Source of the DNA: Clostridia bacterium
GTDB taxonomy: Bacteria > Bacillota > Clostridia > HGM11514
DNA length: 27,299 nt
Direction of reading: 5' to 3'
Assembly (NCBI GenBank): GCA_045586685.1
Contig: JAZNAU010000047.1
Location: forward strand, 1 to 27,299
Below, one piece after another: positions 9,363 to 25,639 of this stretch. The notes beneath the pieces were generated by a model, which saw only the letters and a list, made by a program, of their open reading frames with translations, was not told where the DNA came from and did not search any database. Position numbers and translations under genes: made by a program. Within the stretch, counting starts at the first letter, position 1, and each line of letters begins with the position of its first letter.

Positions 9363-9515
9363 ATGAAAAAAGTATTACGACCCGACCCCAAAACTCAATC
9401 TGTGATTGATGCTTACGTTTCCCCAAAAATGAAACGTTCTGACCCACAGGGAAGTTATACGGGAAAACCTGTGAACAAGAATGAAGTTCCTGTTCAGGAC
9501 GCAGATGATTTATAA
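9363..9515 (+). CDS. small 50-aa hypothetical protein ending DPQGSYTGKP...PVQDADDL
   Basis: GAGGTG RBS at 9351-9356 then ATG 9363, in frame with the 9234 ORF-track call; C-terminus resembles small uncharacterised clostridial proteins (from memory). Confidence 0.75.
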   Translation: MKKVLRPDPKTQSVIDAYVSPKMKRSDPQGSYTGKPVNKNEVPVQDADDL

Positions 9516-9517
9516 AC

Positions 9518-9848
9518 GAAAAGCCTATGCCCCGAACAGCGAAACTTAAGCTGCAAGTACAAGCGAAAAACCAAGAAAACGCGGGTTTTGTTTTCTGTTT
9601 TGAGCTTAACGGAGCTGCTTAAGTGAGCGGTCGAGAGGGGCTGGAGGCTAGACAGAGAAAAGCCTATGCCCCGAACAGGGAGAGTAAGCCGTGAGTACGC
9701 TTGGAAAATCAAGAAAATTGCTTTTTATTTTCTGTTTTCCGAGCTACGGAACTGCTTAGTCGACCGGTCGAGAGGGGCTGGAGGCTAGACAGAGAAAAGC
9801 CTATGCCCCGAACAGCGAAACAAAAATTGCAAGTACAAGCGAAAAACC
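9518..9848. repeat. tandem array of ~138-bp long-hairpin units (2 full, 1 truncated); REP/MITE-like
   Basis: GAAAAGCCTATGCCCCGAACAG at 9518, 9657, 9794 (spacing 139, 137); 51-bp identical block at 9628-9678 and 9765-9815. Confidence 0.9.
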
Positions 9849-9889
9849 CCCGCCCGAAAGATGACAAATTCGGGCGGGGTATTTTATTG
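9842..9889. terminator. bidirectional intrinsic terminator
   Basis: 11-bp stem CCCCGCCCGAA (9848-9858)/TTCGGGCGGGG (9869-9879) flanked by A5 and a T-rich tail, between convergent genes. Confidence 0.8.
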
Positions 9890-22316: not shown

Positions 22317-22693
22317 GCCGTTATTGGTACGCATTGATTGGTGTTGTTCTTTTAATTGTAATCATCGGTGGGGGAATGTTTTATGTGAATCAGGTGACAA
22401 ATCAGATGGAATCCTTAGTCAAGGAAACCCAAGCCATGCTGAAACAGGAAAATTATGAGCAGGCAGAACATTTATTACAGGACTGCAAAACTCTTTGGGA
22501 TAAAAAAAGAAATCGTCTGGAAGCCATGGTGGATCACAATTTGGTAGATCAGGTCAACATTCCTCTGTCCGAGGCACAAGCCTATTTGCAGTACGGAAAA
22601 ACCGCTCATTGTGTTGCCTCCTGTCAAAGACTTTTACAAACCCTTCGTGCCCTCCGCGACGGACAACAGATAGGGTTTTATAACTTGTTTTAA
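22313..22693 (+). CDS. DUF4363-like membrane-anchored small protein
   Basis: ATGA overlap with the DUF421 stop; AAGGAGG RBS; N-terminal TM then helical domain. Confidence 0.7.
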   Translation: MSRYWYALIGVVLLIVIIGGGMFYVNQVTNQMESLVKETQAMLKQENYEQAEHLLQDCKTLWDKKRNRLEAMVDHNLVDQVNIPLSEAQAYLQYGKTAHCVASCQRLLQTLRALRDGQQIGFYNLF

Positions 22694-22702
22694 GAAAAAA
22701 GA

Positions 22703-22731
22703 TAGACAAGTGATAAAAAGTATGGTATAAT
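22703..22731 (+). promoter_or_regulatory. strong sigmaA promoter with extended -10
   Basis: TAGACA (22703-22708)-17 nt-TATAAT (22726-22731), with TG at 22723-22724. Confidence 0.75.
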
Positions 22732-22736
22732 TTACT

Positions 22737-22899
22737 TGTCGCATAAATGAATATCTTTTATTGTTCAAAAGAATGCTATTTGTGAAAAATGCATTCTCTG
22801 TTTGCTTTGTTCTTTTGAACGATAATAAAAGTTTATGCGACACACGCAGGGTAATGCATTTTTGGTGCGTTGTCCCTACGGGGAACAACGCACTTTTTT
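22737..22899 (+). ncRNA. unidentified structured leader or sRNA ending in an intrinsic terminator
   Basis: Long stem 22737-22842 starting at the expected TSS; terminator GTGCGTTGT/ACAACGCAC plus T6 (22865-22899). Confidence 0.6.
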
Positions 22900-22919
22900 A
22901 TTTTAAGGAGGATGTACCT

Positions 22920-23174
22920 ATGAGCATGAAAAAAGAACTGATAATCCAATCGTTGATTGCCATGATGGAAGAAAATCTTGACCGTTATTTAGATCTGGAC
23001 GAAACCAAAATGGCAGACACGATTGCCATTCAAGTCTTATCAGAAATTCAAAACGTTTTGCAAACAAAATCCGACTTTTACGACCCTGACAATGATTTTG
23101 AAATTGTAGAAGAAATTGTAAAAATTTTTAAAAAATACAACCTCCATACGGGTGCCTGTCACGATTTCGGTTGA
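22920..23174 (+). CDS. 84-aa acidic hypothetical protein ending CHDFG
   Basis: AAGGAGG RBS then ATG 22920; followed by a terminator. Confidence 0.75.
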   Translation: MSMKKELIIQSLIAMMEENLDRYLDLDETKMADTIAIQVLSEIQNVLQTKSDFYDPDNDFEIVEEIVKIFKKYNLHTGACHDFG

Positions 23175-23183
23175 TGATAACAT

Positions 23184-23232
23184 AAAAAGCTGTAGTAGGG
23201 AAAAAATCCTTTTACTACAGCTCTTGTTTTTT
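23184..23232. terminator. bidirectional intrinsic terminator
   Basis: AGCTGTAGTA/TACTACAGCT stem, A-run before and T-rich run after. Confidence 0.75.
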
Positions 23233-23263
23233 CGGTTGGAAAAAATAGTGCAGAATGGACATG

Positions 23264-23337
23264 TGCCAGAAGGCAATACCAATCGCAAAGCAAATATCAC
23301 TGCATCGCAATACCACTCGCCCACAGGCGAATAAAAC
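23264..23337. repeat. array of four mini-hairpins joined by 7-nt ATA(T/C)CAC-like linkers
   Basis: TGCC/GGCA-ATACCAA-TCGC/GCAA-ATATCAC-TGC/GCA-ATACCAC-TCGCC/GGCGA-ATAAAAC. Confidence 0.7.
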
Positions 23338-23343
23338 TGTTCT

Positions 23344-23691
23344 TTAAAACAGTCCCTTCATATCTAACCCGCTGGTAAATCTGCTCATCTTAGACACTGC
23401 ATCCGTCTCTGCTGCGGTCAATGCTTCATTTACCGCTGCAACAATCAGGTCGTTGAGCATTTCGATATCATCAGGGTCCACAACCTCAGGAGCAATTTGA
23501 ATCTCGGTCAGCCTTTTTTCTCCCGACACAACAGCTTTTACTGCACCGCCGCCTGCCGTTGCTTCGTACGTTTGTTCCTGAAGCTGATTTTGTGTTTCTT
23601 CCATTTCCTTTTGCATTTTTTGAATTTGCTTCATCATGTTGTTCATATTTCCGCCGCCCATGGGCATTCCGGGGAATCTGCCTTTTGCCAT
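23344..23691 (-). CDS. ybaB: YbaB/EbfC nucleoid-associated protein
   Basis: MMKQIQKMQ, AGGGAV, VDPDDIEMLNDLIVAAVN; downstream of dnaX. Confidence 0.95.
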   Translation of the reverse strand: MAKGRFPGMPMGGGNMNNMMKQIQKMQKEMEETQNQLQEQTYEATAGGGAVKAVVSGEKRLTEIQIAPEVVDPDDIEMLNDLIVAAVNEALTAAETDAVSKMSRFTSGLDMKGLF

Positions 23692-23729: not shown

Positions 23730-25343
23730 TTAAGAAATAATATTGATTTTATCTGACAGTTGATGTGCTATTTCCTGTAAGGGGTCTGGTTTTTCCTGAA
23801 TTTGAGGCGGTGCCTCCTCAGGAACCGACTGTCCAAACGGAACAAAAATCACATTGATATCCATTCCGCTTATTTCTTTAACCGCTTGTTTGACCGCAAG
23901 CTTATTTTGAGGGGTGTCAAGCATGGGGAGTAATTCCAGTAAATACAAGGTTTCTCCTTTGACACGAAACTCTCCTGACCGCAACGCACCGCTTAACAGG
24001 GGATTTCCTCCTCGTTCAATTTCCTGCAAAATATCTGCCCAGTAAGGCATCAGGTCAGCCTTTTTTCCCTCTTTGGAAGCAGGTGCGGGTGGGTCAGCCT
24101 CTTCTTTCTCCGTCACCTTTGGCGGTTCTTTCTGTTTTGGTTGTTCTTCCCGCTCTTTGATTTCAGGCACAGGAACCTTTTTTGGTTCAGGCTCAGCTCC
24201 GTTTTTCATCATCGACTCCAACCGTTCCACGCGGGAGAGCAGATTGGTTTCCTCAGCATCCGGATGGCTTAAGGAAATCAGCGCCATTTCCAGAATCAAT
24301 CGGTTGTTTTTTGCCCAACGGGTGGTTTCATAAGCCTTTGACAACACCTGTACTGCATGTAAGCACCGTGCCATGGATACCCCCTCCGCCTGAACGGACA
24401 AAAGGGCAAGCTCGGTGGCGGGCATATCAATCAATTCAGCGGGTGCACCGCTGCTTTTGCAGACAATCAAATCCTTACAATATTCCATCAGACCTTCCAG
24501 AATCCGCACCGGTTCATAGCCCTTTGCCATCATCTGACGAACCTGCTGTAACACCTGTTCCGTTTCGTAGTTTAAAACCGCTCCGCCCAAAGAAAGCATA
24601 CGGCTGTTTTCTGTTCCGCCTGTGACCGTTCTGACCCAATCTGCATCGATTTCCTCTGTTCTGCCGGAGGCACACTGGTCCAGCAAGGACAACGCATCAC
24701 GCATGGAGCCGTCTGCCGATTTCATAATCAAAGAAAGGGCGTCCTCGGAAATGGAAATCCCATCATTTTGTGCCACTGTTTGCAACCGCTCCAGCATGGG
24801 ATTACGGCTGACACGCTTAAAATCAAACCGCTGACAACGGGAAAGAATCGTGGCGGGAATTTTATGACTTTCCGTAGTTGCCAAAATAAAAATTACATGA
24901 GAGGGAGGCTCTTCCAAGGTTTTTAACAGTGCATTGAAGGCACTGATGGACAGCATATGTACCTCGTCAATGATATACACCTTATAGGTCATACCCGAAG
25001 GAAGGTAGGATACCTCGCTGTTAATGGTTCGGATATTTTCTACGCTGTTGTTACTTGCCGCGTCGATTTCTACCACATCCATCAGACTGCCGTCGGCAAT
25101 CCCCTGACAAACACGACACCGATTGCAAGGATTTCCATTTTCAGGCTGCAAGCAATTCACCGCCTTTGAAAGAACGCGGGCGGTGGTGGTTTTTCCCGTT
25201 CCGCGGGGACCGCAGAACAGATACCCCTGAGCAATTTTGCCTGATTTAATTTCGTTTTGCAAAGTGGTGGTAATGTGCTCCTGTCCTACAATTTCAGAAA
25301 AGGTTGAAGGACGCCACTTCCGATACAAAGCCTGATATTCCAT
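23730..25343 (-). CDS. dnaX: DNA polymerase III subunit tau/gamma
   Basis: LYRKWRP, GPRGTGKT, EIDAAS, IDEVHML, LKTLEEPP, SRCQ. Confidence 0.97.
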   Translation of the reverse strand: MEYQALYRKWRPSTFSEIVGQEHITTTLQNEIKSGKIAQGYLFCGPRGTGKTTTARVLSKAVNCLQPENGNPCNRCRVCQGIADGSLMDVVEIDAASNNSVENIRTINSEVSYLPSGMTYKVYIIDEVHMLSISAFNALLKTLEEPPSHVIFILATTESHKIPATILSRCQRFDFKRVSRNPMLERLQTVAQNDGISISEDALSLIMKSADGSMRDALSLLDQCASGRTEEIDADWVRTVTGGTENSRMLSLGGAVLNYETEQVLQQVRQMMAKGYEPVRILEGLMEYCKDLIVCKSSGAPAELIDMPATELALLSVQAEGVSMARCLHAVQVLSKAYETTRWAKNNRLILEMALISLSHPDAEETNLLSRVERLESMMKNGAEPEPKKVPVPEIKEREEQPKQKEPPKVTEKEEADPPAPASKEGKKADLMPYWADILQEIERGGNPLLSGALRSGEFRVKGETLYLLELLPMLDTPQNKLAVKQAVKEISGMDINVIFVPFGQSVPEEAPPQIQEKPDPLQEIAHQLSDKINIIS

Positions 25344-25374: not shown

Positions 25375-25639
25375 GCCGCACGTTCTTTTTTGAATTATGC
25401 TTCCATGCGTTGCCTTATGAATCGACTCAACTCAGGCAACCCTGAGGCACACACACCAGACTGCTTATCGCTGCTTCGTTCCCGACCTGACGAGGTTCAC
25501 AGACCATGTGTTGCACAGGACCCAAATCTCAACACCGATTCCTAAGGACTGACCATACAAGCATAACCCGAGAAAGAACATCACCCTTGCTACAGCGGAT
25601 TGCAAGTTCAGGGCACCGCTACCTCCCCGGCTGTGCGAC
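25375..25639 (-). ncRNA. ffs: large bacterial SRP RNA (scRNA)
   Basis: Alu-like 5' GGGGAGGTAGCGGTGCCCTG; helix-8 TCAGGTCGGGAACGAAGCAGC; terminal GTCGCAC/GTGCGGC pairing; upstream of dnaX. Confidence 0.93.

Follow-up and report, generated by a model that had tools for sequence, protein, structure and literature searches.

A previously unclassified, conserved folded leader RNA preceding the gene of a small acidic protein in some uncultured gut Clostridia

The DNA analysed here is a contig of 27,299 nucleotides (nt) from a Clostridia bacterium (GenBank assembly GCA_045586685.1, contig JAZNAU010000047.1), and this whole stretch is referred to as the window. On its forward strand, in the region from 22703 to 22899, lies a previously unclassified, conserved folded leader RNA of about 150-165 nt that occurs in some uncultured gut Clostridia. 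Read 5' to 3', the locus consists of a promoter, a 106-nt rod-shaped hairpin (22737-22842), a linker, an intrinsic terminator, a ribosome-binding site (RBS) and an open reading frame (ORF) of 84 amino acids (aa). The promoter is near-consensus and TG-extended, with 11 of 12 consensus matches in a promoter scan. An earlier note on this DNA, made from the sequence alone, had proposed a promoter, stems, a complementarity between the loop of the hairpin and the linker, and a terminator, and all of these are present where that note placed them. The coordinates of the individual features are collected in Table 1.

The rod consists of a basal stem (P1), an inner stem (P2) and a small apical hairpin (P3) that caps it. 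In the window P1 has 12 base pairs (bp), one of which is G-U, and P2 has 17 bp. Taken over all copies described below, the rod forms a stack of about 31-35 bp, and the gap from the foot of P1 to the linker is 3-7 nt (3-4 in the window). A 169-nt stretch containing these features folds at -59.1 kcal/mol, compared with -31.9 +/- 3.8 kcal/mol for 200 shuffled sequences (z -7.2, with no shuffle equal). Because the minus strand folds about equally well (z -8.6), folding energy alone does not tell which strand is the functional one.

A second helix can form between the linker and a segment of the apical region, termed the A-box, which carries a run of five adenines (A5). In the window this pairing comprises 11 contiguous pairs and six more beyond a 1-nt bulge, and the duplex is predicted at -19.1 kcal/mol, a value reached by none of 500 shuffled linkers. 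Across the copies, the complementarity of linker and A-box spans 16-18 bp, and each linker pairs with its own hairpin at -13.8 to -19.5 kcal/mol, with 0-4 of 500 shuffled linkers matching it. The helix varies in sequence, pairing positions 6-9 showing 4, 4, 2 and 2 pair types in the five full copies. What the earlier note had put down as a possible pseudoknot between the loop and the downstream linker has turned out to be the best-conserved feature of the family, its pairing being kept through compensatory changes. Judging from the folds, the linker largely repeats the 5' strand of P3, and the CUCUG stretch of the A-box is single-stranded in the rod state.

The element does not correspond to a known RNA family, as the earlier note had suspected. 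With Rfam 15 at gathering thresholds, a covariance-model (CM) scan of the whole window returned only the signal recognition particle (SRP) RNA at 25376-25638. A permissive scan of the interval 22600-23250 reached at most 21 bits, where the thresholds lie at 30-249, with all E values at or above 0.18, and searches at E <= 0.01 of four loci carrying related elements (L001, L003, L004 and L013, introduced below) found nothing at the element.

Further copies were sought through the ORF in a scan of one genome per species, which yielded 14 loci (L001 to L014), all from metagenome-assembled genomes (MAGs) of Clostridia and some labelled Ornithomonoglobus, Hominilimicola or Lachnospiraceae. Two of them, L002 and L014, begin inside the ORF and are uninformative on the upstream region. 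Six copies of the RNA were found at five genomic places: in the window, in L001, in tandem in L004 (L004A and L004B), in L013, and in L003, where the copy is cut by the contig end. These represent four independent lineages, the window and L001 being close relatives. At each place the last copy is immediately followed by a homologue of that ORF; the RNA, which had been called an orphan, always travels with one gene family. The genes around it differ from place to place. DUF421 and DUF4363 genes lie upstream and a convergent ybaB-dnaX pair downstream in the window and L001, a larB/larC-like pair upstream and a malQ-like gene downstream in L004, and a metK-like gene upstream in L013 (the names larC, malQ and metK were read from translations). 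These different neighbourhoods indicate that the RNA moves as one unit with the ORF. A CM built from the window and L001 only recovered the copies in L013 (E 5.6e-6), L004B (1.1e-4), L004A (3.2e-4) and the truncated L003 (0.019). A search with it of the 111 kb made up by the window and the 14 loci gave no credible copy beyond the six; the weak matches were in L011 (E 0.086 and 0.5), to an ordinary bidirectional terminator, and in L008 (E 4.6 and 8.9).

At L004 (3590-3985) the promoter-RNA-terminator unit is duplicated in tandem, and the promoters and terminators of the two units are near-identical. The interiors have fully diverged yet are internally compensated, such that each A-box fits only its own linker beyond the shared A5 and its partner, a run of five uridines (U5). 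L004A, the upstream one of the two, comes with a promoter and terminator of its own and is not followed by an ORF.

Compensatory changes preserve the pairing in P1, in the A-box:linker helix and in the terminator alike. In a MAFFT alignment that was not guided by structure, P1 is paired in 93% of its cells versus 74% in shuffles, with slid controls at 22-46%; 9 of the 12 pairs have changed on both sides, and none of 500 shuffles was as good. For the 3' module, plain MAFFT put the A5 run one column off, and a CM-guided alignment was used instead. On that alignment the A-box:linker helix and the terminator together are 97% paired versus 86.5% in shuffles (slid controls 39-60%), a figure from a method that leans towards the structure of the model, yet places L004A one base off and is thus, if anything, an underestimate for that row. 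Here 11 of 29 pairs have changed on both sides, and again 0 of 500 shuffles did as well. An alignment-free comparison anchored at the helix ends showed full pairing with each copy's own partner in the five full copies (P1 12/12, long-range helix 9/9, terminator 8/8); with partners taken from other copies the pairing amounted to 42%, 69% and 83%, respectively. Between the window and its close relative L001 there are two compensatory changes in P1, and two U-A pairs of P2 in the window are C-G in L001 (read from the folds). The leaders of these two are 93% identical by column over the 3' 121 nt, versus 85% for the proteins. Conserved structure is found upstream of the ORF homologues in L001, L003, L004 and L013, which was the comparison that the earlier note had recommended.

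G-U pairs recur in the helices, and one at the foot of the terminator is invariant. As such pairs would be A-C mismatches on the other strand, they indicate an RNA on the plus strand and disfavour the idea of DNA operators. Together with the covariation, they bear out the initial proposal of a structured RNA on this strand.

The terminator was expected to end just before the RBS of the 84-aa ORF; it does so, and it is kept in 6 of 6 copies, each with a GC-rich stem followed by U6-7. A simple terminator scan did not list the one in the window, probably on account of a one-base bulge in its stem. GGUG/CACU, the lower stem, does not vary among the five full copies and reads GUG/CAC in the cut copy of L003. 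With it, the invariant core of the RNA comprises G-U-(G)-AAAAA in the apical loop, a CUCUGUU-like stretch with its AACAGAG-like partner, UUUUU followed after 0-1 nt by the GGUG that pairs with CACU, and the U6-7 tail. All five full copies share the arrangement of U5-6, 0-1 nt, stem and U6-7, with A5 paired to the upstream U5. Terminators in these genomes do not in general have such an upstream U5. Among 39 terminator-like sites in the 111 kb, identified by a scan that required perfect stems and did not capture the bulged terminators of the window and L001, a T5 run no more than 8 nt upstream of the stem occurs at four, all of them copies of the leader RNA, and at none of the 35 others; an A5 run lies upstream instead at 11 of the 39.

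Table 1. Features of the leader RNA locus in the window
Feature	Coordinates	Strand	Remarks
Sigma-A-type (sigma-70-type) promoter	22703-22731	+	-35 TAGACA (22703-22708), 17-nt spacer with TG, -10 TATAAT (22726-22731)
P1 5' strand (basal stem)	22737-22748	+	Pairs with 22831-22842; fold and covariation
P2 5' strand (inner rod stem)	22758-22774	+	Pairs with 22809-22825
A-box	22785-22801	+	Apical loop and 3' side of P3; invariant A5, 4-6 variable bases, CUCUGU-like stretch; pairs with linker
P2 3' strand	22809-22825	+	Predicted fold
P1 3' strand	22831-22842	+	Fold and covariation
Linker	22846-22863	+	A-box complement GCAGGG-U-AAUGCA-UUUUU; ends in invariant U5 directly against terminator stem
Intrinsic terminator	22864-22899	+	Hairpin 22864-22894, -21.6 kcal/mol, then U6 ending at 22899
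RBS of small ORF	22905-22911	+	AAGGAGG; begins 5 nt past the U run
84-aa ORF	22920-23174	+	ATG at 22920; acidic small protein of uncharacterised family

Transcription is predicted to start at G22738, the second base of P1. An invariant G, which pairs with C at the foot of P1, sits 7 nt past the -10 hexamer in the window, L001, L004A, L004B and L013, in a MAFFT alignment made without structural guidance in which the promoters align. From the position of this invariant G-C foot, the RNA is predicted to begin at a base-paired G. At the other end, only 2-6 nt separate the U tract from the Shine-Dalgarno (SD) sequence in each ORF-proximal copy (including L003, L004B and L013), which leaves no room for a promoter of the ORF's own. 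The gene would consequently be transcribed only by read-through of the terminator, and the RNA would set the gene's expression.

A terminator/antiterminator switch, as suggested in the earlier note, is not supported by the comparison. The proposed antiterminator (22839-22848 with 22866-22874) is present in the window, but it is not conserved and is no better than chance. The best upstream partner of the terminator 5' strand was compared with 300 shuffles in five copies, and no conserved antiterminator was found. The partner was the linker in the window (42 of 300 shuffles as good), the 5' strand of P1 in L004A (257 of 300), the 3' strand of P1 in L004B (125 of 300) and P2 in L013 (12 of 300, a marginal result), while for L001 43 of 300 shuffles did as well. 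Partners of the terminator 3' strand fared no better in the same test. A trp-like 2:3 structure, in which the linker or the P1 5' strand pairs with the terminator 5' strand, was rejected on inspection of the helix lists as too weak or not conserved. Neither a leader peptide nor pairing with the SD sequence offered another route: the short ATG frames in the leaders lack an SD sequence and are not shared between copies, and the CUCU stretch would make 4-6 weak and inconsistent anti-SD pairs (by eye).

The rod together with the terminator is the minimum-energy state, 6-18 kcal/mol better than the nested state that contains the long-range helix. Given the length of the rod and its short spacer, an intact rod and an intramolecular A-box:linker helix should not be able to coexist. 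This clash could be resolved in three ways: the RNA may alternate between rod and long-range-helix states, the rod may bend back, or the helix may form between two molecules. Because the linker repeats the 5' strand of P3 and the CUCUG stretch is single-stranded in the rod, a toehold-driven strand exchange is plausible as the linker leaves the polymerase.

The protein encoded downstream is acidic, rich in Asp and Glu, and has a conserved C-terminal DFEIVEEIV...CHDF(G) motif. An AlphaFold model of the 84-aa protein has three helices at a predicted local distance difference test score (pLDDT) of 85. A word-indexed search identified five near relatives, and an exhaustive search 110 representative clusters at E <= 0.001, mostly of 77-79 aa (77-84 aa for the family). 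The window protein belongs to no Pfam, NCBIfam, PHROGs or PADLOC family, and it gave no significant PDB sequence-profile or Foldseek PDB match and no usable protein-atlas hit. Among 61 family members, Pfam returned only five single-member matches at chance level; of four proteins compared with PADLOC, three had no family and that of L013 had a single chance-level match (E 0.0086). Searches by tblastn of phage and plasmid collections gave no match for the small protein.

The small gene is preceded either by the leader RNA or by a small divergent gene, usually one for a recognisable DNA-binding protein. L005-L012 are the eight loci in which DNA upstream of the gene is available and shows no match to the RNA; in each of them a small ORF of 61-95 aa lies 63-159 nt upstream and diverges from the gene on the opposite strand. 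Six of these ORFs match Pfam HTH_3 or HTH_26 (XRE-type) and one matches Arc; that of L010 had no hit. This exchange of an RNA for a divergent small gene is the main reason to read the RNA as the gene's control element. The pair of a small DNA-binding protein and a small acidic protein in L005-L012 itself looks like a conserved two-gene module. Two of these loci have further peculiarities. In the MAG of L010 the small ORF is present as two paralogues (898-1143 and 2389-2634) separated by about 1.2 kb. In L012 (3956-4180) the homologue has no in-frame ATG, GTG or TTG upstream of the matched region until residue ~55 and may be a pseudogene or have an unusual start; the divergent HTH_26 gene is still found upstream of it.

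We consider it about an even chance (a probability of roughly 0.5) that the element is a cis-acting attenuating leader with two competing folds, in which any regulation of read-through would come from a trans-acting factor. More generally, the leader RNA probably limits how much of the small gene is transcribed. Most transcripts would end at the terminator, and a regulated or fixed fraction would read through into the mRNA. The RNA would toggle between the rod fold and the long-range-helix fold, the latter opening P1 or P2, with the new helix stacking on the terminator. As no antiterminator is encoded, raised read-through would need a trans-acting factor (a protein, RNA or ligand), which would act on the conserved A5/U5/GGUG junction. 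Several observations weigh against this reading. No antiterminator is conserved. With the rod and terminator the better state in energy, termination looks like the default and may be constitutive. The upstream copy in L004, complete without an ORF, behaves as a free-standing RNA gene. All loci were fetched by way of the ORF, and the linkage between RNA and ORF is thus partly a product of the search. The copies amount to only four independent lineages and one near-duplicate, and both the start site and termination are predictions. The protein tree of 13 short sequences, in which the second L010 ORF copy is labelled 'regulator-type' by a label not based on its upstream region, is too poorly resolved to speak for or against a single origin of the leader.

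Some of these same observations would suit a stand-alone and very stable small RNA (sRNA) of ~155-165 nt, with the ORF expressed weakly and passively through leakage of the terminator and with selection maintaining the RNA for a role of its own, either in trans or together with the protein as its partner. We regard this as possible but somewhat unlikely. The strong, constitutive-looking promoter, a 5' end predicted to be base-paired from its first nucleotide, a strong terminator without a conserved antiterminator, and the complete L004A unit are all consistent with it, as are the concentration of the most conserved bases at the 3' end (A5, U5, GGUG/CACU and the U tail) and the upstream U5 that is unique to the leader RNA among the 39 terminator-like sites. 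However, at all five places the last copy abuts the SD sequence of the same gene family at that distance of 2-6 nt with no room for a promoter, and in loci lacking the RNA its place is taken by a small divergent gene (for a recognisable DNA-binding protein in seven of eight cases), which points to gene control. Nor was a further copy found elsewhere in the 111 kb, a small amount of sequence that was itself selected by way of the ORF. A classical small-molecule riboswitch with a terminator/antiterminator platform appears quite unlikely. The leader position, the terminator before the RBS, the pseudoknot-like long-range pairing and the conserved blocks (GUAAAAA, CUCUGUU/AACAGAG and UUUUU(C)GGUG) would fit one, and a 9-bp pairing that would compete with the terminator is available in the window and L001. 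Yet the antiterminator is neither conserved nor above chance, Rfam gave no match, and the downstream gene gives no hint of a metabolite. In addition, most of the conserved bases are paired in the long-range helix and the sequence of the rod varies freely, so that little is left for a ligand pocket. Least probable by far, to the point that we scarcely credit it, is a role at the level of DNA, in which the AATGCATT arms or the long inverted repeat would serve as operator sites or the whole would be a mobile or repeat element. The caveat of DNA operator sites in the earlier note drew on the palindromic nature of AATGCATT in the window, to which the equally good folding of the minus strand may be added. 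The palindrome is, however, absent from L004A, L004B and L013, the stretch reading GTGT/ACAC, CGCA/TGTG or GCGT/ACGT in other copies, and the complementarity of the arms is kept by compensatory changes. Moreover, the recurrent G-U pairs, one of them invariant, would be mismatches in DNA, there is no other copy in the window, Tandem Repeats Finder reported no tandem repeats in 22600-23300, and no promoter-like site was found on the minus strand within the element.

Resemblances to several known systems are evident. Transcription-attenuating leaders include riboswitch expression platforms, T-box leaders and trp-type attenuators with their 1:2, 2:3 and 3:4 pairings. Like these, the element has a constitutive-looking promoter, a structured leader, an intrinsic terminator before the RBS and a linker with an alternative upstream partner; unlike these, it has no conserved antiterminator and no Rfam match, and the alternative pairing spares the strands of the terminator. 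In type III toxin-antitoxin loci (ToxIN, CptIN) a promoter is followed by a structured RNA, an intrinsic terminator and a protein gene reached by read-through, which results in an excess of RNA over protein. The layout of promoter, RNA, terminator and gene is shared with these loci, and the RNA is present twice at one locus (L004). CptIN of Eubacterium rectale is an example of such a system (PMC4627078). The present RNA differs in having no short tandem repeats by the same Tandem Repeats Finder analysis, and its protein, being small, acidic and helical and without a convincing toxin or defence profile, differs from the ToxN, CptN and TenpN endoribonucleases. The 84-aa protein is therefore unlikely to be an RNA-binding endoribonuclease. 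Plasmids of the pT181/pIP501 type use attenuation driven by an antisense RNA. The leader resembles theirs in its alternative pairings, in the terminator just before the start codon and in specificity sequences that differ between paralogous copies. It is unlike them in that no promoter-like site was found on the minus strand in 22700-22900 and no pre-emptor or antiterminator is present; furthermore, the leader is chromosomal and does not precede a replication gene.

Major-groove U.A-U triple helices are known from the 3'-end clamps of the element for nuclear expression (ENE) and of MALAT1, and from loop 1 of H-type pseudoknots in telomerase RNA and the SAM-II and preQ1-II riboswitches. As in ENE and H-type triplexes, two U runs here flank a G+C-rich hairpin, and A5 pairs one of them directly against the stem; the 3' U tail would lie parallel to the A strand, like loop 1 in an H-type pseudoknot. 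In contrast to the ENE, the clamp would be made from an intrinsic terminator and its own U tail, with the 5' rather than the 3' U run in the Watson-Crick role. By this analogy the invariant core (A5, U5, the GGUG/CACU foot and the U6 tail) could be a bacterial 3'-end triple-helix clamp. In a related variant, the A-box:linker helix would give an antiparallel RNA homodimer. We offer these suggestions tentatively and think them unlikely to be correct. After termination the A-box:linker helix would stack on the terminator, and the U tail would lie in the major groove of A5:U5 to form five U.A-U triples. The U5 strand would run into the 5' strand of the terminator and the A-box strand would abut its 3' strand, with the U tail leaving parallel to the A strand. 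Such triples would explain why exactly these bases are invariant, and with the base-paired 5' end both ends of the RNA would be sealed. If the helix instead formed between two molecules, the steric clash between the rod and the loop-linker pairing would vanish. In the clamp and the homodimer alike the terminator would double as a structural module. A full-text literature search turned up no account of this RNA and none of a terminator-tail triplex, and in the accessible part of a review of RNA triple helices (PMC13541005) the words 'terminator' and 'sRNA' each occur 0 times.

Other RNA elements and repeats were noted in the window and the additional loci. The SRP RNA mentioned above is of the bacterial large type (25376-25638, minus strand, 175 bits) and lies directly upstream of dnaX (23730-25343) and ybaB (23344-23691), the order ffs-dnaX-ybaB being typical of Firmicutes. 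Sub-threshold matches to the Rfam Gut-1 RNA (RF01706) fall in the gap that separates ybaB from the end of the small ORF, on the minus strand and immediately downstream of ybaB, with 35.5 bits in the window (23271-23339) and 44.4 bits in L001 (709-777), relative to a gathering score of 50. In L013 an S10-Clostridia ribosomal protein leader (RF03136; 2064-2146, minus strand, 47.6 bits) is above its gathering score and is an ordinary known element. The window also contains about 2.4 tandem copies of a 137-nt unit (9518-9848) that are 86-93% identical to each other. They are located between a 50-codon ORF (9364-9516) and a strong hairpin terminator near 9849-9885. The unit has GC-rich nested complementary stretches, and no Rfam match at E <= 1 beyond noise was obtained for these repeats.

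The element would add a new leader RNA family, supported by covariation, from uncultured gut Clostridia. It is unusual in having two conserved and mutually exclusive foldings without an encoded antiterminator, and in the conserved junction of A5, U5 and terminator. Should the U tail indeed form a triplex, it would be a bacterial equivalent of the 3'-end triple helices known from eukaryotes and viruses. The exchange of the RNA for a divergent gene amounts to a natural experiment on what an RNA can do instead of a DNA-binding repressor, and it marks the 77-84-aa family, with its 110 representative clusters and no annotation, as a tightly controlled gene worth characterising.

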